15,571 bases of DNA, from assembly GCA_964373695.1 (NCBI GenBank), contig CAYJVT010000019.1, positions 1-15,571 on the forward strand. Reading direction: 5' to 3'. A program made the position numbers and the translations under genes. Below, one piece after another: positions 3-13,340 of the stretch. Below the pieces are notes generated by a model that saw only the letters and a program-made list of their open reading frames with translations, did not search any database and was not told the origin of the DNA. Within the stretch, counting starts at the first letter, position 1, and every line of letters starts with the position of its first letter. The DNA comes from an uncultured archaeon. Lineage in GTDB: Archaea > Aenigmatarchaeota > Aenigmatarchaeia > GW2011-AR5.

Positions 3-668
3 AACATCGCTTTTGGGGCTCTGATAATTTTGGTTTTGATGCTTGTAGCAAATAACTTTCTTATAACGACTGCCTATGCAACTGCCGACACAGCCAGCGT
101 AAACGGCGGCAGCATAAGCATAAAGCCAGGGTTTGAATACGGTTCTAAAGTAACATTGAAGCCTATGCCTCTAGAAACAGGAGAATCTCCGAGATTTCAA
201 GGCTACAGGACAATGGTAAAGCCTTTGCCGACTATCAGCGAACTTTCGCTTTCACCATCAACAGGCGATGTCGTGCAGGATCTTGTCAATAATGTTGTTC
301 CAAGAGGGACGCCATGGTACGGACAGGAAGCAGGTGTCAGCTTTGATGATCCTATACAGGCGCAGCAGCTTTGGGCAAGAGCCAGATCCGTAAAGCTCGA
401 TGGTGCGCAGGAGCAACGATGGAGCAGAATAGTGAATTCCTTTACTTGCGACTACTGCTGCGGGTCTCCACAGAATCCGACCATAATAACGCGCTGTGGC
501 TGCGCGCATTCAGCGGCTGCACAGGGCATGGCGAGATGGTTCATAAAGAATTATGGCGACGAATATTCTGATGAGGAGATATACGGAGAAATGGCACGAT
601 GGTACGCATTATGGTATCCTGGACCTACTGTAAAGAGAATCGCAGAGGAACTGCAGGCTAAAAATTAG
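3..668 (+). CDS. Membrane-anchored/exported Cys-cluster protein (CDYCCG...CGCAH), 5'-truncated by the window edge
   Basis: The frame is open from base 3 (NIAFGALIILVLMLVANNFLI, a hydrophobic anchor), so the TTG at 30 is not necessarily the start. The C-terminal domain is FTCDYCCGSPQNPTIITRCGCAHS. Stop TAG at 666-668. Confidence 0.8.
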   Translation, partial: NIAFGALIILVLMLVANNFLITTAYATADTASVNGGSISIKPGFEYGSKVTLKPMPLETGESPRFQGYRTMVKPLPTISELSLSPSTGDVVQDLVNNVVPRGTPWYGQEAGVSFDDPIQAQQLWARARSVKLDGAQEQRWSRIVNSFTCDYCCGSPQNPTIITRCGCAHSAAAQGMARWFIKNYGDEYSDEEIYGEMARWYALWYPGPTVKRIAEELQAKN

Positions 669-679
669 GTGGTGACTTT

Positions 680-1141
680 ATGGCAAAAAGAAAAAGCAAA
701 ATCAGCGATATCTTGGAAGAACGAAGTTCTTCGAGATCTCAAAGAAGCAAAGCTTCTTTGCATAAAATGTTTGGAATTATGATAGGTGTAGCTTTAACGC
801 TCAGCGCCATATGGATAATCAGTGCAGTATCCGTTTCCTTTGCGCAAGAAGATGTAAGAAATTATATGATGTCAGGCATGATGCCTGTGGCGAATAATCA
901 AGAAATTATGATGAGTGATGCGATGCCCGATAATGAGATGTCAGGGAATATGATGCACTCAATGATGATGGGCGGAAATGGCATGTCGAAATGCATGAAA
1001 ATGATGAATCAGGCTATGGATGACGGTAAAATCACGCAAGAGGAAATGGAAGAAATGATGGGGCAAATGGACAAGGACGGCGACGGGCTATGCGATTATT
1101 GCGGCATGTCTGTTGAGATGTGTAGAAGAATGATGGGTTAA
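680..1141 (+). CDS. Exported Met-rich protein with C-terminal EF-hand-like/CxxC motif; putative Cu(I)/Ag(I)-binding protein
   Basis: GGTGA at 671-675 precedes the ATG. One hydrophobic segment (MFGIMIGVALTLSAIWIISAVSVSFA). About 29 Met in 153 aa by hand count. C-terminus DDGKITQEE...MDKDGDGLCDYCGMSVEMC. Confidence 0.85.
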   Translation: MAKRKSKISDILEERSSSRSQRSKASLHKMFGIMIGVALTLSAIWIISAVSVSFAQEDVRNYMMSGMMPVANNQEIMMSDAMPDNEMSGNMMHSMMMGGNGMSKCMKMMNQAMDDGKITQEEMEEMMGQMDKDGDGLCDYCGMSVEMCRRMMG

Positions 1142-1155
1142 TAGTGGTGATGAAA

Positions 1156-1194
1156 ATGAAAAATAAAAAGCAAAAGAAAGGGGGTTGTTGCTAA
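1156..1194 (+). CDS. Candidate micro-ORF MKNKKQKKGGCC (12 aa; 14 aa if started at ATG 1150)
   Basis: GGTGA at 1146-1150 lies 5 nt before ATG 1156. Its TAA (1192-1194) overlaps the ATG of the next gene (TAATG). It fills the whole intergenic gap. Confidence 0.4.
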   Translation: MKNKKQKKGGCC

Positions 1195-1409
1195 TGGAAA
1201 GAAAAGAACTGCTGATGACGCTGATGATAGGCGTGCTTTTGCTCACAACAGCCATGCAGACAGTTGCATTGGCAGGTATGAACAACGGGCAAGTTTCATT
1301 GAGTGCAAAAAGCGTTGCAAGCAGCCCAACACAAAGCTCGAGCGCGCCGGCAACAAGCGGCTCAACAGGAAGCTTAGCAAACCTGCCGAGCATGGTAGGC
1401 GGCTGTTAG
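1194..1409 (+). CDS. Small exported protein with Ser/Thr/Ala linker ending in LPSMVGGC
   Basis: ATG 1194 is preceded by GGGGGT (1180-1185). Signal-like segment LLMTLMIGVLLLTTAMQTVALA, a low-complexity S/T/A/G linker, and a single terminal Cys. Confidence 0.8.
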   Translation: MERKELLMTLMIGVLLLTTAMQTVALAGMNNGQVSLSAKSVASSPTQSSSAPATSGSTGSLANLPSMVGGC

Positions 1410-1465: not shown

Positions 1466-2860
1466 ATGAGCAAGAAAACATTAGATGTTGTTTTATATAT
1501 TTTTATAGCATCGGCAATTGTAATTTCTGTTTTAAATATTTCACTCATCACAGGCCGTAGCGAAAAAGTCAACGAGGCTATTAGGCTGGCTGAACAGCAG
1601 AATCAGCCTGCTAAACTTGAATTAATAAAGATTGGCGCTTCTTCTTGTCAAAATTGTTTTGATATAAACCCGGTTGCAGAAAACCTCAAGAAAGCTAACG
1701 TTAATGTCACTTCTGAAAGGTCTGTAGATTTTTCATCCGACGAAGCAAAGCAGCTTATCCAACAATATAATATTGAGAAAGTGCCTACAATCATAGTTCT
1801 AGGCGAAGTCAATAAATCCTCTGTTGTCAGTCTTTGGAGCCAGAACTGGCAAGTAGAGATGAAAGACGGCACGCAGGTTTCGGCTGTTTATTCGGCTGCT
1901 GCTTTGCCGTACATGGATGCTTCCGGCAATATTAAGGGGCTTGTTTCCATTACCCATGTGGTGGACGAGTCTTGCCCACAGTGTGCAGATCTTACGCAGG
2001 TAATAAGTTTCTTCAAGCAGCAAAGCGTAAAGTTCTCAGGCGAAAAAACAATTGATTACACATCTTCAGAGGCCAAAGGTCTGATATCTAAGTTCGGAAT
2101 CCAGAAAGTCCCTGCACTGATCATTTCTAAGGATATCCTGGATTATCCAGCTATATCGCAAGTATGGAGCCAGTTAAACGCGACCGAGAAGCAGGGCTTC
2201 TACGCGCTGCATACTACTGTGCCGCCATACAGGGATTTGGCAACAAATAAAATAGAAGGTTTGGTGTCAGTAATATATCTTAATGATAGTACATGCTCAA
2301 GCTGCTACAACGTTCAAGCTAATAAGCAAATATTGGAGAGAAACTTCGGTTTAGTACTTGTAAACGAAACTACTGTTGATATAAGTTCGGATTCTGGAAA
2401 AGCGCTCATAAAACAATATAATATCACTAATGTTCCAATTATGCTTGCTTCTCCAGAAGCCAGCCTTTATGTAGCACTTGTTCAAGCATGGGCTCAAGTC
2501 GGCAATGTTTCTAGTGACGGATGGTTTGTGATGAGGAGCCCAGAAATTTTAGGAACGTACAAGGATTTGAGCAAAGGAGTTGTGGTAAATCAAATAACAG
2601 TATATGGCGGTGAATTTGAATTCCAGCCGAATTCAATTCAAGTTAAGAAGGGCGAGACCGTTCGCTTAACTTTCATAAACGCTGGAACGGTTGAACATGA
2701 TCTTGTTATAGACGAGCTAAATGTTAGAACCCAACGCTTGCAGCCACGCGCGGCAGAAACCATAGAGTTCATTGCGGATAAAACAGGAACATTTTCATTC
2801 TATTGCTCTGTAGAAGGACACAGGCAGCAGGGCATGGAAGGGAAGTTTACTATAAGCTAG
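1466..2860 (+). CDS. Membrane-anchored protein with three thioredoxin/glutaredoxin-like CxxC repeats and a C-terminal type-1 copper cupredoxin domain
   Basis: N-terminal TM segment. CxxC at C61-C64, C170-C173 and C277-C280, each followed about 45 aa later by a (K/N)VP cis-Pro-type motif (P107, P216, P324). The C-terminal domain has the cupredoxin pattern FEFQPNSIQVKKGETVRLTFIN...H411...C447xxxxH452xxxxM457. Confidence 0.9.
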   Translation: MSKKTLDVVLYIFIASAIVISVLNISLITGRSEKVNEAIRLAEQQNQPAKLELIKIGASSCQNCFDINPVAENLKKANVNVTSERSVDFSSDEAKQLIQQYNIEKVPTIIVLGEVNKSSVVSLWSQNWQVEMKDGTQVSAVYSAAALPYMDASGNIKGLVSITHVVDESCPQCADLTQVISFFKQQSVKFSGEKTIDYTSSEAKGLISKFGIQKVPALIISKDILDYPAISQVWSQLNATEKQGFYALHTTVPPYRDLATNKIEGLVSVIYLNDSTCSSCYNVQANKQILERNFGLVLVNETTVDISSDSGKALIKQYNITNVPIMLASPEASLYVALVQAWAQVGNVSSDGWFVMRSPEILGTYKDLSKGVVVNQITVYGGEFEFQPNSIQVKKGETVRLTFINAGTVEHDLVIDELNVRTQRLQPRAAETIEFIADKTGTFSFYCSVEGHRQQGMEGKFTIS

Positions 2861-2868
2861 GTGACGAA

Positions 2869-3351
2869 ATGAATGGAACAAGTGAGAGAAATATTCTATT
2901 GTTCGGACTTGTGGGTTTAATTCTTATCATTGCTGCTGGTATTGCTTATGTGCAATGGTTCCAAAAACCAGCAGATTTGCAGGCTTACAGTACACCGTCT
3001 CCGGAAGAAGTTGTAAGGCAGTATTTTGAGTCGTGGAACAACAAAGACTGGCCGAATATGTATGCAACGCTGTCGGACGGCTTCAAAAAGATAGACCCTG
3101 ATGCAAAGGATATGGCAACATTCAGGAGTTTCGCAAGCTCACAAGGCATAGAAGGCGTTAATATGTTGAGCATAAAAGAAACTTCAAATGACGGAACAAC
3201 AGCAAGCGTGGATTATTCTGTTGAATTTATTTTGGGTGACGGAAGCACAAGGCCTTTCAGCGGCAGCTTCACGCTGAAATTCAGGCAGGGGGACATAATT
3301 CCGGGGTGGAAAATGATACACCCTTACGGGCCTAATGTCGATACTTCGTAG
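2869..3351 (+). CDS. Membrane-anchored NTF2/SnoaL-like fold protein
   Basis: ATG 2869 follows GGTGA (2860-2864); the ORF-track extension to 2803 overlaps the previous gene. TM segment ILLFGLVGLILIIAAGIAYV, then SPEEVVRQYFESWNNKDWPNMYATLS, typical of the start of NTF2-like domains. Confidence 0.75.
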   Translation: MNGTSERNILLFGLVGLILIIAAGIAYVQWFQKPADLQAYSTPSPEEVVRQYFESWNNKDWPNMYATLSDGFKKIDPDAKDMATFRSFASSQGIEGVNMLSIKETSNDGTTASVDYSVEFILGDGSTRPFSGSFTLKFRQGDIIPGWKMIHPYGPNVDTS

Positions 3352-3867
3352 GTGATTATAATTAAGAAAAAATTAACGAAACAAAAACTGAAAGCGCGGT
3401 CAATTATTATAGGCAGCATAGCAGCTTTCTCAATTTTTGCCGCATTCGGAATCGTTACAGTGCTTCTGCCAAACGAGTTCTTTATCAGAATGACTCCGGT
3501 ATACGTCTATGATTACATATTTCTTGTTATGACGTCTATACTTTCTGGCGCTTACATAGGATTGTGGTACTACACAAAAAAGACGCAGACGAAGTGCAAT
3601 TACGCAGCAACAGGCGGAGCCGTCGGCGGCTTCTTATCTTTCGGCTGCGCAATCTGCAACAAGCTTCTGATTCTTTTGCTGGGCGTAACTGGTGTTGTAG
3701 CGTATTTCATGCCGATACAACCGATACTCGGTGTTGTTAGCGTGGCTTTGCTTGCCTATGCAGTCTATATGCAATCAAAGACTTTGTTGTCGAGAGGCAG
3801 GATTCATTGCCATACAGCAGAGCACCTCGAATCTGGCATGATGGCTACCTTTACTGTAAATAATTAA
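3352..3867 (+). CDS. Multi-pass membrane protein with an intramembrane CxxC (GCAICNK), MerT-like arrangement
   Basis: About four hydrophobic segments, the motif GGAVGGFLSFGCAICNKLLILLLG, and a C-terminal HCHTAEH. The start codon is uncertain (GTG 3352 or downstream). Confidence 0.8.
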   Translation: MIIIKKKLTKQKLKARSIIIGSIAAFSIFAAFGIVTVLLPNEFFIRMTPVYVYDYIFLVMTSILSGAYIGLWYYTKKTQTKCNYAATGGAVGGFLSFGCAICNKLLILLLGVTGVVAYFMPIQPILGVVSVALLAYAVYMQSKTLLSRGRIHCHTAEHLESGMMATFTVNN

Positions 3868-3882
3868 TGATGGTGGAAAATT

Positions 3883-4635
3883 ATGGACAATACAGAAAAA
3901 TTTGCATTTGGGTTCTTGGGCATAGCTGCAATAATTGCTATATTTGCAATGCTCTCTGCATTCAACATAATTACACTGGGTACGAGTCAAGCAGCTTCTA
4001 CTACCACCCAAAATGTGATGGGTCAGCGCTTGACAAGAATGAGTCTAACGTCTTTTGATGCGGCACTGGCAAAGCAATTCATGGACAAGGACGGCGATGG
4101 CAGGTGTGATGTGTGTGGCATGGACGTGCAGATTTGCATGGACAGCGGCCAGATTCAATGCAATATGGATTCCAAGTCAACAATTGGTATTCTTGGCTCG
4201 CAACATATACATGCAGACTGGAAAGTATATATAAATGGCAAGGCACTGGACGACAGCTTCTTAGACTCTTTGGCTATGGACATGTCAAAAATGGACAACA
4301 AATTGACAAGCAGCTTCATACATCTTGACAAGGGCGCCCCCGCCCCAGAAAAGACAGGAGATTTGCTGCATATGCACGCAATCGGCGTTCCTCTATGGAT
4401 ATTCTTCAAAAGTGTTGGCATGGATTTCAGCAAGGACTGCTTGACACTAACTTCTGGCGAGAAATTCTGCAATGATGGTCAAAGAACCTTGAAATTCTAT
4501 GTAAACGGCAAGCCGAATAATGAATGGGAAAATTACGTGTTCAACGACTTGGATAAAATCCTGGTCTCATATGGGGATGAAACCGACTTAAGCCAGCAAT
4601 TAGGTTCAAAAACAGATTTTGCAAAGAATCATTGA
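3883..4635 (+). CDS. Membrane-anchored protein with a DKDGDG-CxxC module and a His-rich (HxH) C-terminal domain
   Basis: N-terminal TM segment. MDKDGDGRCDVCGMDVQIC at aa 67-85. His at 108, 110, 147, 163 and 165. C-terminal FCND...LKFYVNG...WENY..ND.DKI is shared with 5977..6621. Confidence 0.85.
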   Translation: MDNTEKFAFGFLGIAAIIAIFAMLSAFNIITLGTSQAASTTTQNVMGQRLTRMSLTSFDAALAKQFMDKDGDGRCDVCGMDVQICMDSGQIQCNMDSKSTIGILGSQHIHADWKVYINGKALDDSFLDSLAMDMSKMDNKLTSSFIHLDKGAPAPEKTGDLLHMHAIGVPLWIFFKSVGMDFSKDCLTLTSGEKFCNDGQRTLKFYVNGKPNNEWENYVFNDLDKILVSYGDETDLSQQLGSKTDFAKNH

Positions 4636-5473: not shown

Positions 5474-5497
5474 CTTCTGTATACTAATTGACAGAAG
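5474..5497. promoter_or_regulatory. Inverted repeat CTTCTGT-N10-ACAGAAG; candidate operator in the divergent promoter region
   Basis: Perfect 7-bp arms between the divergent starts at 5448 (-) and 5521 (+). Flanked by AT-rich TATA-like tracts at 5462-5469 and 5501-5507. Confidence 0.5.
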
Positions 5498-5520
5498 CGG
5501 AATTTAAGGTGGGCAGTTTC

Positions 5521-5895
5521 ATGGCAGAAACCAGTTTACGCGTAGTAACCAACGGAGAAAAATGCAGAATGAAGGGCAGCGGCTACTGCCCGAAGCCTCT
5601 GGAGCAGGCGGCAGTTTTCTTGAATAAAAAGTGGGCGCTTAGCATTATAGTGACAATCGGCAATTTCGGCAACTTGAGATTCAACGACCTTCTGGGAAGA
5701 ATTGAAGGCATTACGCAGAAAACATTATCAGAAAGATTGAAAGAGCTTGAGCGATATAACTTGGTAGCCAGGCAAGCTTTTTCAGAAAGACCGCCGCGCG
5801 TAGAATATTCGCTGACAAAAAATGGCCATAGATTTAGAAAGGCTGTTTTGCCGCTGCTGAAGCTTGCAGAATCCCAGACCTTTATTAAAAATTAA
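5521..5895 (+). CDS. HxlR-family (MarR/DUF24-type) winged-helix transcriptional regulator with N-terminal Cys
   Basis: YCP...KKWALSII...LRFNDL...GITQKTLSERLKELE...PPRVEYSLT is the HxlR-family signature. ATG 5521 (GGTG upstream) is preferred over TTG 5488. Confidence 0.92.
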   Translation: MAETSLRVVTNGEKCRMKGSGYCPKPLEQAAVFLNKKWALSIIVTIGNFGNLRFNDLLGRIEGITQKTLSERLKELERYNLVARQAFSERPPRVEYSLTKNGHRFRKAVLPLLKLAESQTFIKN

Positions 5896-5909
5896 GGTAT
5901 ACAAACTCT

Positions 5910-5924
5910 GTAAAAGTTTTATAT
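5910..5924 (+). promoter_or_regulatory. Candidate archaeal BRE/TATA promoter (GTAAAAG-TTTTATAT) for the 5977 gene
   Basis: Purine-rich run immediately followed by a TTTTATAT box, upstream of a GGTGA RBS at 5967-5971. Confidence 0.4.
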
Positions 5925-5976
5925 TAATCGGAATACACGGTAAGAAATGGAATCTATAAAGAGGTTGGTGATTTAA

Positions 5977-6621
5977 TTGGTCGAATTCAAGTGCAACGAA
6001 TGTGAAAGGAATTTTTCTTCTCAGGAATCCCTGGGTCAGCACAACAGGGACAAGCACGGCCTCGGAGGGTCGCAGTCAAAACATGAACTAAAACAGCTCA
6101 AAAAACAGGAGAGAGAAAAACAACATTCTTTTGAACAGAGAAAAGTATATAAGTCGAAGTTAATTAAGCGCAGCATGTATGTGGCAATTCCTGTATTCAT
6201 AATAGCTGCCGTATTTGTGTTCGTTTCTTCGCAGCCTCCTGCAATAAACGCCAATTCGGTTGCCGCCGCCGAAATTCCAGGAGTCCCTATACACTGGCAT
6301 CCGGCGCTGACTATAATATTAAACGGCCAGCAGCAGACAATACCTTCTAATCTGGGGTTGACCGGCGTGCATCAGCCAATACATACGCATGATAGTACAG
6401 GAGTTCTTCATTACGAAATTAATAATCCAACGCCGGAAAACATGCCGCTGCGCTATTTTTTTGAAAGGGTATGGAGAAAACAATTCACCGGCACATGTAT
6501 AATGGGCTATTGTAATGACGATTCCGGAACCGTAAAGATGTACGTTAATGGCAGGGAAAATTTTGAGTTTGAAAATTACATACCCAATGATAAGGACGAT
6601 ATACGAATAGAGTTCAGCTAA
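5977..6621 (+). CDS. C2H2 zinc finger - TM - His-rich (HxH) domain protein, paralog of 3883..4635
   Basis: FKCNECERNFSSQESLGQHNRDKH (C6, C9, H22, H27), a basic helix, TM MYVAIPVFIIAAVFVFV, then IHWH...IHTH...LH and YCND...KMYVNG...FENY.PND.D.I. TTG start lies 5 nt after GGTGA. Confidence 0.88.
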   Translation: MVEFKCNECERNFSSQESLGQHNRDKHGLGGSQSKHELKQLKKQEREKQHSFEQRKVYKSKLIKRSMYVAIPVFIIAAVFVFVSSQPPAINANSVAAAEIPGVPIHWHPALTIILNGQQQTIPSNLGLTGVHQPIHTHDSTGVLHYEINNPTPENMPLRYFFERVWRKQFTGTCIMGYCNDDSGTVKMYVNGRENFEFENYIPNDKDDIRIEFS

Positions 6622-6629
6622 AAAACATT

Positions 6630-6858
6630 TTGCTGAAATCCGGCGGCAGGCCTGGAAAGGAAAAAGTCGGCATTGTCGGCGCTTTTCTGGGCATCTTCAC
6701 GTCCGCATGCTCGATATGTTATCCTATAGTCAAGGTGAAAGCCGGCGGCTTTCACCTTCCTGCCTTTCAGGGGCGCCGAATTCCATGCTGCAAGCATAGC
6801 CCTGCTATTGCTTTCGGTATTTTTCACTTCAAGAAGCATAGAATGCAACAAATGCTGA
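6630..6858 (+). pseudogene. Frameshifted small two-TM CxxC membrane protein (MerT/MerF-like layout)
   Basis: The frame starting at 6630 gives ...VGIVGAFLGIFTSACSICYPIV. The +1 frame from about 6742 gives PAAFTFLPFRGAEFHAASIALLLLSVFFTSRSIECNKC* (TGA 6856-6858). The frame switch falls within the palindrome at 6732-6758. Confidence 0.65.
6732..6758. repeat. Perfect palindrome AAGGTGAAAGCCG-G-CGGCTTTCACCTT (13-1-13)
   Basis: Arms checked base by base; they are exact reverse complements. Confidence 0.95.
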
Positions 6859-10050: not shown

Positions 10051-10097
10051 CAAAAAGCAAAGCTTTTTGAGAATCTTGAAGAAGCTATGCTTCTTCA
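10051..10097. terminator. Two tandem hairpins at the end of pdhC (8-3-8 at 10051-10069; 9-3-9 at 10077-10097)
   Basis: CAAAAAGC-AAA-GCTTTTTG and TGAAGAAGC-TAT-GCTTCTTCA. The second straddles the pdhC stop codon. Confidence 0.5.
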
Positions 10098-11338
10098 CGG
10101 ATCATCATGTGGGGGTCCTCGAGGTGCTCTATGAGCTCATTCATGAATTTTGCGGCCTCCGCGCCGTCAAGCACGCGGTGGTCGAACGACAGCGACAGCG
10201 GCATGAACCTGCGCGCGACGATTTTGCCCTTGTGCACCGCCGGCTTCTCGCGTATCCTGCCCACTGCAAGTATTGCGGCCTCCGGGTAATTTATTATCGG
10301 CGTCGCAAAGATGCCGCCTATGCTTCCGATGCTCGTTATCGTGAACGTGCCGCCCTGCATGTCCATTATGTCGAGCTTCCGCTCCTTCGCCTTCTGTGCA
10401 AGCAATTCAATTTCCTTCGCGAGCTGGGGTATGCTTTTGCTGTCCGCCCCCTTGACTACAGGAACGACAAGCCCCTCGCCGACGTCCACGGCGATGCCGA
10501 TGTTGTAGTACTTCTTTAATATTATCTCTTCATGTTCCATATCAAGCGTTGCATTGAGGTAAGGATGCTTTTTCAGCGCTGCTATGACAGCCTTTGCGAT
10601 GAATGGCAGGAATGTCAGGTGAACGCCCTTCAGCTTATCTTTTTCCTTCTCTCTTATGTTGTATAGATGCGTCACGTCGGCCTCGTCCATATGGGTGACA
10701 TGCGCCGCATTCTGCATGGATTCTGCCATCTTCTTCGCCGTGGCCTTCCTTATCCCCTTCAGCGGCACATGCTCTATGTAGCCGAATATGTCGTATTTCT
10801 TCACGACTTTTGCTTCGGGCGACGCTTCATGCTTGTCTATCGGCTTTGCCTCTTCGGAGCCAGCGTGCCTCCGGACGTCCTCCTCGGTGACGCGGCCCTC
10901 GGCCCCTGTTCCTTTCATGTCGTCTAGATTGACGCCCAGATTCTTTGCAAGCCTTCTTGTGGCCGGCGTGGCAAGAGCGTGCGGCATTGGCCTTTCAAGG
11001 GATTTTTCTCTGGCCGGCCGCGCCTGTTCTTCTTCGGCTTCCGGCAGCTGCCCAACGACGGATGAAGTGTATTTCTTTGCCGGTGTCTTTATTTTTTCGC
11101 CTGCAGATTCTCCTATGGTCACAAGAGTTTCCCCCACTTTGACAGTATCCCCGGCCCTGTGGTGTATCTTCGTGACCGTTCCTGAGTAGGGCGACGGTAT
11201 CTCGACCACGGCCTTGTCTGTCTCTATTTCTGCTATCACATCATGCTCCTTTATCCTGTCCCCTTCCTTCACGAGCCATCTGACTATCTCGCCTTCAGTT
11301 ATGCCCTCGCCTACGTCTGGAAACTTGAATTCAGGCAC
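10085..11338 (-). CDS. pdhC: 2-oxoacid (pyruvate) dehydrogenase E2, dihydrolipoamide acyltransferase
   Basis: Single lipoyl domain (ETDKAVVEIPSP), E3/E1-binding domain (ATPATRRLAKNLGVNL...GTGAEGRVTEEDV) and catalytic DHRVLDG. The GTG start overlaps the pdhB stop. Confidence 0.96.
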   Translation of the reverse strand: MPEFKFPDVGEGITEGEIVRWLVKEGDRIKEHDVIAEIETDKAVVEIPSPYSGTVTKIHHRAGDTVKVGETLVTIGESAGEKIKTPAKKYTSSVVGQLPEAEEEQARPAREKSLERPMPHALATPATRRLAKNLGVNLDDMKGTGAEGRVTEEDVRRHAGSEEAKPIDKHEASPEAKVVKKYDIFGYIEHVPLKGIRKATAKKMAESMQNAAHVTHMDEADVTHLYNIREKEKDKLKGVHLTFLPFIAKAVIAALKKHPYLNATLDMEHEEIILKKYYNIGIAVDVGEGLVVPVVKGADSKSIPQLAKEIELLAQKAKERKLDIMDMQGGTFTITSIGSIGGIFATPIINYPEAAILAVGRIREKPAVHKGKIVARRFMPLSLSFDHRVLDGAEAAKFMNELIEHLEDPHMMIREEA

Positions 11339-12300
11339 TAGAACACCACCGTCCTGTTTATAGCGTCTATTATCTTTTCTGTCGAAGGGATAAAATAATT
11401 TTCAAGCTTCGCAAGGGGCATCGGCACGTCCGGCCCTGTTACGCGGGCGACCGGGGCTTCAATGCTGAGAAAGGCCCTTTCCATTATCTGCGAGGCTATT
11501 TCCGCGCCGAGGCCGCACGTCCTCCACGCCTCATGCACTATGACGGCGCGTCCGGTCTTCTCCACGGACTTCTTTATTGTCTCCGTGTCCAGGGGAGAGA
11601 GGCTTCTTACATCAATGAGCTCGCATTTATGCTTCGTCTTCTTCACGGCTTCGTTGCACTGCTTCATCATGGCGCCCCACGATATCACCGTGACGTCGCT
11701 TCCTTCCTGCACGACATCAGCCTTCCCTATCGGGATGGTGTATTCATCCTCCGGGACTTCCATCTTTATCGCCCTGTAGACGCGCTTCGGCTCCATGAAA
11801 ACAACAGGGTCCGGCTCGCGTATCGAAGATACCAGCAGGCCCTTGGCGTCGTAAGGATTGGAGGGCGTCACGACCTTTATGCCGGGCATGTGAACCAGAA
11901 GGGCCTCCGGGCTTTCCGAGTGGTGCTCTGGCGCGTGTATGCCTCCTGTGTATGGCACCCTTAATGTCAAGGGAACGTGGAATCTTCCCCTCGTTCTCGT
12001 CCGTATGCGCGCCGCATGGGTGACAAGCTGGTCGAATGCCGGGTACAGGAATCCTTCGAACTGTATCTCGGCGACAGGCTTCAATCCGTTGACGGCCATG
12101 CCTATCGAAGTGCCTACTATGGCCGATTCCGCGAGCGGCGTGTCTATCACGCGCCCGGGGAATTTGTCATAAAGGCCTTCGGTGACGCGGAATACGCCGC
12201 CGTTCACGCCTACATCCTCGCCCAGCACTACCACGGACTGGTCCTTCTCCATCTCCTGCCTCAGCGCGAGGTTTATGGCCTGGACCATGTTCATTATCAT
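11338..12300 (-). CDS. pdhB: 2-oxoacid (pyruvate) dehydrogenase E1 beta subunit
   Basis: GEDVGVNGGVFRVT, DTPLAESAIVG, EIQFEGF, HHSESPE and LIDVRSLSPLD motifs. ATGA overlap with the pdhA stop. Confidence 0.96.
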   Translation of the reverse strand: MIMNMVQAINLALRQEMEKDQSVVVLGEDVGVNGGVFRVTEGLYDKFPGRVIDTPLAESAIVGTSIGMAVNGLKPVAEIQFEGFLYPAFDQLVTHAARIRTRTRGRFHVPLTLRVPYTGGIHAPEHHSESPEALLVHMPGIKVVTPSNPYDAKGLLVSSIREPDPVVFMEPKRVYRAIKMEVPEDEYTIPIGKADVVQEGSDVTVISWGAMMKQCNEAVKKTKHKCELIDVRSLSPLDTETIKKSVEKTGRAVIVHEAWRTCGLGAEIASQIMERAFLSIEAPVARVTGPDVPMPLAKLENYFIPSTEKIIDAINRTVVF

Positions 12301-13340
12301 TTTCTCATCTGCTCCTGCAATGCCTGCGTCGGCTTCTCATATACATACTTGAACATGTCTTCTTTCACGGGAACAGGCATATCCTCGAACGCCTTTACCG
12401 CTGCCTGCACGCGCTCCGTCGCGTTCTTTGTGAGCTTCTTTTCCGAGTCGGCGTTCCATACCTTCCTCTTTTCCATATACTTGCGCAGCCTCTCTATCGG
12501 CTCTCTTTTTTTCCATTCTTCCAGCTCTTTCTCGCTTCTGTATTTTTTCGCGTCGTCCGCCGTGGTATGGTCCCCCAGCCTGTAAGTGAGGCACTCTATC
12601 AGTGTTGGCCCGTTTCCGGCGCTCGCTTTCTCCAGCGCGTCGAGCGTTGCCTTGTATACCGCGAATATGTCGTTCCCGTCCACCTGGACGCCCTCAAACC
12701 CGAAAGCCACGGCCTTCTGCGCTATCGTCCCGGCTGCAGTCTGCTTCTTCACCGGCATGGAAATAGCCCACTGGTTGTTCTGGCATATGAAGACGACAGG
12801 CGCCATGAATACGCCGGCGAAATTCATCGCCTCCAGGGTGTCGCCTTCGGAAGTAGCGCCGTCGCTGAAATAAGCTATAGTCGAGTATTTCTCTTTCTTC
12901 ATCCTGGCCGCCATGGCGAAGCCGACGGCATGGAGCGGCTGGGTGCCCACCGGAATCGAAACGGAGAAGCAATTGATGCCCGGGGGTATGTGATTTCCCC
13001 TCTCGTCGCCGGCCCAGTATGCGTACATGAGGTGCATCGGCATCCCCCTCGTGAGATAGGCGGCTCCTTCCCTGAACGCCGGGAACATCCAGTCATCCTT
13101 CCGCATCGCATATGCGGAGCCGACTTGCGCCGCTTCCTGCCCGAGTATGGAGGCATAAGTGCCTATTCGTCCCTCACGCTGAAGCTTGAGCGCATTGGCA
13201 TCGAATATGCGGGCCGTGACCATGAATTCATACATTTTTTTCGCGTCTTCATCCTTCACAGGAGGCGTGCTGCACTTTCCCGTCTCGTCAAGCAGCTGGA
13301 GCTTGCGGACGCTGAAAGACATCTTCTCGTCGTATGCCAT
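12297..13340 (-). CDS. pdhA: 2-oxoacid (pyruvate) dehydrogenase E1 alpha subunit
   Basis: QREGRIGTY, GQEAAQVG, the ThDP-binding (S)DGATSEGD...NN motif and TYRLGDHTTADD. Substrate specificity (pyruvate versus branched-chain) cannot be fixed from sequence alone. Confidence 0.94.
   Translation of the reverse strand: MAYDEKMSFSVRKLQLLDETGKCSTPPVKDEDAKKMYEFMVTARIFDANALKLQREGRIGTYASILGQEAAQVGSAYAMRKDDWMFPAFREGAAYLTRGMPMHLMYAYWAGDERGNHIPPGINCFSVSIPVGTQPLHAVGFAMAARMKKEKYSTIAYFSDGATSEGDTLEAMNFAGVFMAPVVFICQNNQWAISMPVKKQTAAGTIAQKAVAFGFEGVQVDGNDIFAVYKATLDALEKASAGNGPTLIECLTYRLGDHTTADDAKKYRSEKELEEWKKREPIERLRKYMEKRKVWNADSEKKLTKNATERVQAAVKAFEDMPVPVKEDMFKYVYEKPTQALQEQMRK

Follow-up and report, generated by a model that had tools for sequence, protein, structure and literature searches.

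We analysed a stretch of 15,571 nucleotides of forward-strand DNA (hereafter the window; contig CAYJVT010000019.1 of assembly GCA_964373695.1) from a DPANN (Aenigmarchaeota-type) archaeon, whose genome of 1.02 Mb is 91% complete. The window carries an open reading frame (ORF) of 464 amino acids (aa) at 1466-2860(+), the product of which is predicted to consist of an N-terminal anchor helix, three tandem thioredoxin-fold units with one CxxC motif each, and a C-terminal type-1 (blue) copper cupredoxin. The ORF call and the alignment of homologues show that it is one real gene; homologues of 455–478 aa align over 97–100% of it in 15 of 17 cases, the two distant ones over 91%, and this near full-length alignment argues that the annotated start is right. 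The protein contains exactly seven cysteines, which form the three CxxC pairs (C61/C64, C170/C173 and C277/C280) and contribute one residue, C447, to the cupredoxin. The AlphaFold model of the whole protein, built from 71 homologues, has a mean predicted local distance difference test score (pLDDT) of 93.9 and a predicted template modelling score (pTM) of 0.76, and the ESM Atlas gave no usable match. Residues 4–46 form a single helix in the model, hydrophobic over about residues 8–29 and with K3 and K4 preceding the hydrophobic stretch. This hydrophobic helix preceded by two lysines suggests that the protein is membrane-anchored, probably with the rest of the chain facing outward. An earlier reading of the letters alone (the original prediction) had proposed an archaeal surface protein, and the archaeal host, the anchor helix and the positive N-terminus all fit that proposal.

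The three units, of about 108 aa each, are mutually 27–28% identical, and the columns invariant among them include C..C, V-P, W.Q and Y.D. Unit 1 matches Pfam Thioredoxin (PF00085) at 34.3 bits against a cut-off of 23.5, unit 2 matches Glutaredoxin (PF00462) at 24.5 bits against 22.9, and PF13192 scores 33.4 bits against 24.8; unit 3 was assigned to the thioredoxin fold through its 27% identity with the other units. In the models each repeat runs in the order strand, CxxC, helix, strand, helix, cis-proline, strand and an added β-hairpin. Specifically, each CxxC sits between strand 1 and helix 1, and the positions of the motifs (residues 61–64, 170–173 and 277–280) and of the prolines (107, 216 and 324) fit the DSSP trace of the models. 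The VIA match list of the whole model was filled by the cupredoxin, and the repeat region was therefore folded again separately by AlphaFold (pLDDT 95.3). Nearly all of the 50 VIA matches listed for this trimmed model are thioredoxin-fold proteins or domains, which align to its residues 5–102, 114–208 or 221–318 or span units; the scores are modest, with Z of 4.3–5.8 and a root-mean-square deviation (rmsd) of about 3 Å over about 63–80 residues for the single-unit matches. Foldseek matched the repeat array to protein disulfide isomerase (PDI), ERdj5, ERp44, fragments of QSOX and structures of protein disulfide oxidoreductase (PDO), with E values of 6e-8 to 1e-4. The matches to thioredoxin-fold arrays in both searches indicate that the modelled repeats are thioredoxin folds, the first of the points on which the original prediction had staked its reading. 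The profile matches, the placement of CxxC and cis-proline and the predicted structure all assign them to the thioredoxin-like fold superfamily.

A search of 5.8 billion proteins returned 223 relatives, the best 120 of which were analysed. The six CxxC cysteines are invariant in all 120, down to 37% identity and far beyond chance. P216 and P324 are also invariant, P107 is kept in 119 homologues, and the residues between the CxxC cysteines vary freely. With CxxC and cis-proline loop kept throughout, all three units are predicted to be catalytically equipped.

The C-terminal domain matches both Cupredoxin_1 (PF13473; 45.3 bits, cut-off 27) and Copper-bind (PF00127; 32.2 bits, cut-off 21.2) over residues 377–463. 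The predicted copper ligands are H411, C447, H452 and M457, of which the last three lie within a C-x4-H-x4-M loop. This loop and the upstream histidine motif align to the N-terminal cupredoxin of Hyphomicrobium nitrite reductase (2DV6) at an E value of 2e-14, and the modelled domain superposes on copper-bound 4HCF with a Z of 16.7 and an rmsd of 0.9 Å over 88 residues. The H-C-H-M ligand set is kept in 17 of 18 fused homologues; the fused protein P0036 is without it and has Ser, Asp and Leu in place of the ligands. By these features the domain is a type-1 (blue) copper cupredoxin with an intact ligand site, and copper binding is predicted. Its closest relatives are mostly free-standing anchored cupredoxins of 130–200 aa. 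Together, profiles, repeat alignment, models and ligands bear out the architecture originally proposed, that is, three thioredoxin-fold CxxC units followed by a type-1 cupredoxin.

Several known systems share parts of this layout. PDO (TIGR02187; P. furiosus 1A8L, 1J08, 2HLS, 2AYT; archaeal/Aquificales) likewise consists of tandem thioredoxin-fold units, each with a CxxC; TIGR02187 matches units 1 and 2 (residues 43–223, E value 6.5e-9), and Foldseek matches all four structures. However, the TIGR02187 score is 35.4 bits against a cut-off of 185 bits, and the window protein has three units instead of two, extra β-hairpins, a fused cupredoxin, an N-terminal anchor and a probable location outside the cell, whereas PDO is cytoplasmic. 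The eukaryotic PDI family and QSOX are also linear thioredoxin-fold arrays and, with 8PKO_B, ERdj5 and ERp44, give the best Foldseek matches (for QSOX, fragments); QSOX likewise fuses thioredoxin domains to an electron-disposing redox-cofactor module. In contrast, the window array is arranged differently (rmsd above 15 Å over the whole array), has no b-type domains and is predicted to be catalytic in all three units, and its cofactor module is type-1 copper, with no Erv/ALR flavin adenine dinucleotide (FAD) domain found by Pfam. The bacterial ScsB/ScsC, DsbD/DsbC and CcdA/TlpA systems (the last acting on Sco and on the CuA cupredoxin of CoxB) likewise use an outside thioredoxin-fold CxxC protein, and the copper-stress context near CcdA and Redoxin genes is shared as well. 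Unlike these, the window protein has three units in one chain, no separate oligomerisation domain and no DsbA-type helical insert; Pfam gave no match to DsbA (PF01323), and the stretch from strand 3 to the following unit is modelled with short helices only. Unlike in the CuA systems, the copper protein is fused and has a single-Cys type-1 site.

For the cupredoxin, the PF13473 proteins 4HCF and the N-terminal domain of 2DV6/6TFD have the same fold (Z 16.7/14.8, rmsd 0.9–1.2 Å), loop and ligands, but the window domain is a C-terminal appendage of a thiol-redox array and neither stands free nor belongs to a nitrite reductase. CopI (NF051440), also a cupredoxin of copper-resistance context, is the best NCBIfam match, at 38.5 bits against 280 and over residues 377–417 only. 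Since the scores lie far below the cut-offs, the protein is neither a PDO nor a CopI; since it has no helical insert it is not of the DsbA/ScsC type, and since it has no Erv domain it is not a QSOX. Our literature search, which included Aenigmarchaeota copper and DPANN disulfide topics, found no paper on a thioredoxin–cupredoxin fusion or on a triple array, and public records say only 'cupredoxin domain-containing protein', in agreement with the original prediction, which knew of no characterised protein with this architecture. The protein combines two domains of known kind, and this combination is real, conserved and as yet uncharacterised.

About 18 of the 120 homologues are full-length fusions of 455–494 aa, and those that are named carry only the label given above. 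The remaining 102 or so are anchored triple arrays of about 350–400 aa without the copper domain, and exactly six cysteines are present in 98 of these 102. Few relatives carry a source name, and those are almost all Aenigmarchaeota or DPANN archaea. The family occurs in 58 of 301 sampled species-level genomes of the phylum. In this sample the full-length fusion of the window type was found in 4 genomes, a two-unit fusion in G117 and a fusion with a different cupredoxin in G001; the window gene is the sole family member in its own genome. The triple thioredoxin-fold array is the ancestral part and the cupredoxin is optional. One fused homologue, P0038, lies on a 3.8-kb contig labelled Nitrospirota 'Ca. 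Mariimomonas ferrooxydans' and nests on the tree among homologues whose other named members are archaeal; the contig is probably mis-binned, and transfer is less likely.

Fused and unfused forms interleave on the tree of the thioredoxin part, on which ground we rejected the idea that the fused forms are one clade. Nearest to the window protein on this tree is the unfused P0010, 83% identical and in the same operon slot. Unfused proteins end in a Gln-rich tail, with the next operon gene directly after it; this natural tail and the adjoining gene led us to reject the idea that they are truncated artefacts. Among close relatives the cupredoxin is 82–96% identical and the thioredoxin part 72–79%. 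In P0052 the thioredoxin part is 35% and the cupredoxin 64% identical to those of the window protein, a disagreement which argues that the two parts differ in history. Two further fusions (P0046 and P0053) carry a different cupredoxin, 33–37% identical and with a C-x2-H-x4-M loop, behind a Gln-rich linker. Two-unit arrays with a cupredoxin are found in L021:4308-5453, P0150 and P0151 (the L numbers denote loci). In P0161 the order is reversed, the cupredoxin being followed by a CPFC-bearing domain of DUF929, a family placed in the thioredoxin-like clan (PMC3091736). Additionally, L005 has a free cupredoxin two genes upstream of the array, 44% identical to the window domain. By sequence, then, the cupredoxin has joined CxxC domains of predicted thioredoxin fold in at least four layouts, and this repeated fusion argues for a functional link.

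The reversed order, with a CPFC-bearing DUF929 thioredoxin-like domain behind the cupredoxin, is also found at L023:4373-5428. The surrounding island encodes Redoxin, DsbD_2-type and HMA proteins, as well as an unfused triple array that is preceded by a small gene of its own.

The coordinates of the features in the window are collected in Table 1. Comparison of the loci of relatives shows the same operon around fused and unfused genes. It starts with a divergent BlaI-like repressor (Penicillinase_R) and an M48/M56 membrane protease; that the regulator might be a CopY-type copper sensor was rejected, the Penicillinase_R proteins having no Cys motif. HxlR and PadR regulators recur around the operon. 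The next gene encodes a protein of 447–485 aa, or is split in two, and comprises a membrane part, which carries a CxxC in the L021 copy, and an outside Cys-motif domain. This Cys-motif gene is kept upstream of both fused and unfused forms, and in the window it is cut where the contig start truncates the operon. A small protein of 59–76 aa, bearing a tethered thiol, is encoded directly upstream of the array gene in 10 of 10 loci that reach far enough, fused or unfused; its terminal VGGC is near-invariant, one copy ending in VGGCG. The thioredoxin array follows as the third gene of the operon.

Table 1. Features of the window, with nucleotide (nt) positions counted from its first letter
Feature	Position	Strand	Details
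Whole gene, 464 aa + stop	1466..2860	+	anchor helix, three thioredoxin-fold units and type-1 cupredoxin (predicted)
Signal-anchor helix and stalk, residues 1–46	1466..1603	+	from sequence; AlphaFold helix 4–46
Thioredoxin-fold unit 1, residues 47–155	1604..1930	+	CQNC nt 1646–1657; cis-Pro P107
Thioredoxin-fold unit 2, residues 156–263	1931..2254	+	CPQC nt 1973–1984; cis-Pro P216
Thioredoxin-fold unit 3, residues 264–371	2255..2578	+	CSSC nt 2294–2305; cis-Pro P324
Type-1 cupredoxin, residues 372–464	2579..2857	+	
Predicted copper ligands		+	H411 nt 2696–2698; C447 nt 2804–2806; H452 nt 2819–2821; M457 nt 2834–2836
Second half of the 447–485 aa protein	3..668	+	extracytoplasmic Cys-motif (CC...C.C) domain; cut by contig start
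71-aa partner	1194..1409	+	transmembrane helix, Ser/Ala/Pro linker, C-terminal VGGC (tethered thiol)
160-aa anchored NTF2/SnoaL-like protein	2869..3351	+	downstream operon gene
CxxC membrane protein with multicopper oxidase remnant	3352..3867	+	remnant is the last 21 residues (nt 3802–3864)

Downstream of the array, the NTF2-like gene is syntenic in five close relatives (L001, L003, L007, L017 and L018), and more distant loci have a gene of about 220 aa in its slot. Genes for CxxC membrane proteins come farther downstream, as do genes whose products carry YHS-like CxxCGM and HxH motifs. The ORF at 3352-3867 is a chimera: its residues 1–146 are orthologous (78%) to a CxxC membrane protein of 150 aa, the gene of which immediately precedes that of a multicopper oxidase in L001 and L007, and its last 21 residues are the end of that oxidase with the HCH...H...GMM copper motif (81% identical). 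The multicopper oxidase and a MerT-HMA gene, the latter seen in L001, have been deleted in the window genome. The membrane half of the 447–485 aa protein is a weak paralogue (21–30% identity) of the 3352 gene, and the products of 3-668 and 3352-3867 could be membrane partners of the array. A Met-rich protein at 680-1141(+) and an HxH-domain protein at 3883-4635(+), otherwise unrelated, share a 19-residue DKDGDG-CxxCGM module (YHS/TRASH-like), which matches relatives' orthologues of the 3883-4635 protein at 68–84% identity. NCBIfam gave nothing meaningful for the neighbouring genes, and an operon protein with CxxC in its membrane helices has a weak MerTP match.

The wider neighbourhoods are rich in copper and thiol genes. 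Copper P-type ATPases with YHS/HMA domains lie near the operon in L001, L006, L016 and L018, and L001 also has TRASH, DUF302 and MerT-HMA genes. A multicopper oxidase lies directly downstream of the fused forms in L001 and L007, and none was seen in the four unfused loci read. Pfam finds CcdA/DsbD_TM or DsbD_2 within 8 kb in L003, L005, L006 and L023, to which L021 adds a CcdA-like ORF recognised by eye, and it places Redoxin near the operon in L001, L006 and L023. Beside the two-unit fusion of L021, the region 5496-6751 encodes a C2H2 zinc finger, membrane helix and DsbA-like protein, and also a small membrane protein with VKOR-like Cys spacing (by eye). The window's own genome contains three CcdA-like genes on other contigs and two P-type ATPases.

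From these findings we propose, with about even confidence for and against, that the protein is an envelope thiol–disulfide exchanger acting under copper stress, similar to PDI and ScsC, for which blue copper would be a one-electron partner. The three CxxC/cis-proline units would form an outward-facing, membrane-anchored, PDI-like array that, under copper or oxidative envelope stress, repairs or protects the cysteines of exported proteins, candidate substrates including the Cys-rich proteins of its own operon. The C-terminal blue-copper domain would then be an optional plug-in exchanging single electrons with the array. The copper might take electrons from reduced CxxC and pass them to a multicopper oxidase or another copper centre; alternatively, the array might keep the Cys ligand of the cupredoxin reduced and loadable with copper. 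Bacterial DsbC and ScsC exchange disulfides and are fed by DsbD/CcdA, and the action of TlpA on CoxB and of ScsC on CueP offers precedents for the servicing of copper proteins by thioredoxin folds. The conserved active-site residues, the fold matches, the cupredoxin with its ligand set, the repeated fusions, the conservation of the operon, its copper genes and the CcdA and Redoxin neighbours support the exchanger. These last neighbours favour a reductive role no less than an oxidative one, and within this proposal we lean towards a CcdA-fed reductive or isomerising array with copper as its electron outlet or its client.

Several findings weigh against such an exchanger. The cupredoxin is dispensable, being absent from 102 of 120 homologues with the two forms interleaved; no residue in the thioredoxin body was found to track the fusion state, only the junction at 370–372 differing; and some fusions have long Gln-rich linkers. 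The window contains no CcdA gene, its genome gave no match to a multicopper oxidase (Cu-oxidase_3), and among five other genomes with a cupredoxin-fused form (three or two thioredoxin units) the oxidase is present in two. The absence of fused-specific thioredoxin residues, together with the long linkers, argues against a fixed docking interface and, together with the easy gain and loss of the domain, against obligate, rigid coupling. The original prediction had held that dithiol/disulfide chemistry is coupled to one-electron copper transfer. This remains plausible in view of the repeated fusions and the copper islands; against an obligate coupling stand the majority of family members, which have no cupredoxin, the closest relative included, the lack of a fusion-tracking residue in the thioredoxin body, the deletion of the neighbouring oxidase, and CcdA and Redoxin neighbours that suggest a reductive role at least equally.

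The same evidence bears on other explanations. The fusion could be a copper-based disulfide oxidase relay, an option named in the original prediction, in which electrons would pass from substrate dithiols through CxxC and, one at a time, through blue copper to a multicopper oxidase and O2, replacing the quinone-dependent DsbB/VKOR step; the scheme would follow that of QSOX, copper standing in for the flavin. Established redox potentials make the transfer of electrons from a dithiol to type-1 copper a downhill step. VKOR gave no match in the 91%-complete own genome, a multicopper oxidase adjoins the fused forms of L001 and L007, leaves its remnant in the window and is missing from the unfused loci read, and both the repeated cupredoxin/thioredoxin-fold fusions and the QSOX oxidoreductase fragments among the Foldseek matches fit such a relay. 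However, the oxidase is absent from the own genome and from three of the five other fused-form genomes, by which we rejected it as an obligate partner; most family members lack the cupredoxin; the CcdA and Redoxin neighbours suggest a reductive feed; and no two-electron/one-electron converter such as a flavin is present. Moreover, in L021 VKOR-like (by eye) and DsbA-like genes adjoin the fused form, so the fusion does not replace VKOR/DsbA there. We therefore consider the relay unlikely. That the array is the core of a quinone-independent, copper-based disulfide-making pathway, leading from exported cysteines through the CxxC array and blue copper to a multicopper oxidase or other copper acceptor and O2, appears unlikely as well.

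It is also possible, at a low probability, that the two parts are independent modules on a shared anchor, an isomerase or chaperone array and a CopI-like cupredoxin that binds copper or oxidises cuprous ions, joined solely so as to be expressed together and in one place in the copper response. The cupredoxin does come and go between very close orthologues, a search for co-adapted residues found none, most of the domain's nearest relatives stand free, and its higher conservation and the disagreement of its tree with that of the thioredoxin part (see P0052 above) indicate that it behaves as a mobile cassette; the best NCBIfam match, although weak, is CopI. That match falls far under its cut-off, and the joining of the domain specifically to CxxC thioredoxin folds, seen in no fewer than four layouts and even with the unrelated DUF929 family in reversed order, is hard to explain otherwise than by a functional link. 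A further suggestion, that the CxxC pairs are Cu(I) ligands which capture copper at the surface as MerP or ScsC do and hand it to the CxxC membrane proteins or to the oxidising copper domain, draws on an operon rich in soft-metal motifs (the Met-rich protein, CxxCGM modules, membrane CxxC and tethered Cys) and on the reported binding of Cu(I) by the thioredoxin-fold ScsC. The conserved cis-proline loop and the PDI-like arrangement are what redox-active thioredoxin folds typically show, the two residues enclosed by each cysteine pair are free to vary, and no His or Met ligands lie beside the CxxC motifs, all of which make this suggestion highly improbable. Finally, the CxxC pairs might be inert structural disulfides of a glycosylated surface protein in which only the copper domain functions, in keeping with the probable extracytoplasmic location, the N-glycosylation sequons and the restriction of cysteines to CxxC pairs and copper ligand. 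But a CxxC at a helix N-terminus with an invariant cis-proline is a catalytic and not a stabilising arrangement, and all three motifs are kept in 120 of 120 homologues; we give this explanation almost no weight.

DPANN archaea, with their tiny genomes and no respiratory chain, have been described to contain orphan cupredoxins and copper proteins of puzzling role (PMC10936187). A blue-copper domain repeatedly fused to thioredoxin folds of predicted catalytic function provides a concrete hypothesis for such proteins, namely that thiol chemistry is wired to one-electron copper chemistry at the cell surface. The triple array itself represents a single-chain, PDI-like prokaryotic layout, predicted to be catalytic in all units and unnamed, in about a fifth of the sampled genomes of the phylum. 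Around the gene lies a conserved stress operon, so far uncharacterised, with the tethered-thiol peptide and CxxC membrane proteins; it may constitute a new system of copper and thiol homeostasis in the envelope. If the copper-based disulfide pathway were true, DPANN archaea, being without respiratory chains, would gain through it a route for oxidative folding, and their orphan cupredoxins would have a job.

With respect to glycosylation, the eight sequons of the original prediction (N24, 80, 116, 238, 273, 300, 319 and 347) are all present. Shuffles of the same sequence contain 3.9 ± 1.8, and the enrichment is mild since 3% of the shuffles reach eight. The N24 sequon lies inside the anchor helix, those at N80, N116, N238 and N319 are shared by roughly half of the homologues, and the genome has an STT3/AglB match, so that N-glycosylation appears plausible from the sequence.

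Two further observations concern the host. Its genome encodes a second cupredoxin at C31:4143-4397(-) (locus L009), which has a CuA-type C-x3-C-x3-H-x2-M motif and resembles the orphan 'nosZ-like' proteins of DPANN archaea (PMC10936187). In addition, the window carries at 10085-13340(-) a complete 2-oxoacid dehydrogenase set, comprising E1 alpha, E1 beta and lipoyl E2, a noteworthy find in a DPANN genome of 1 Mb and one in keeping with a life exposed to oxygen.

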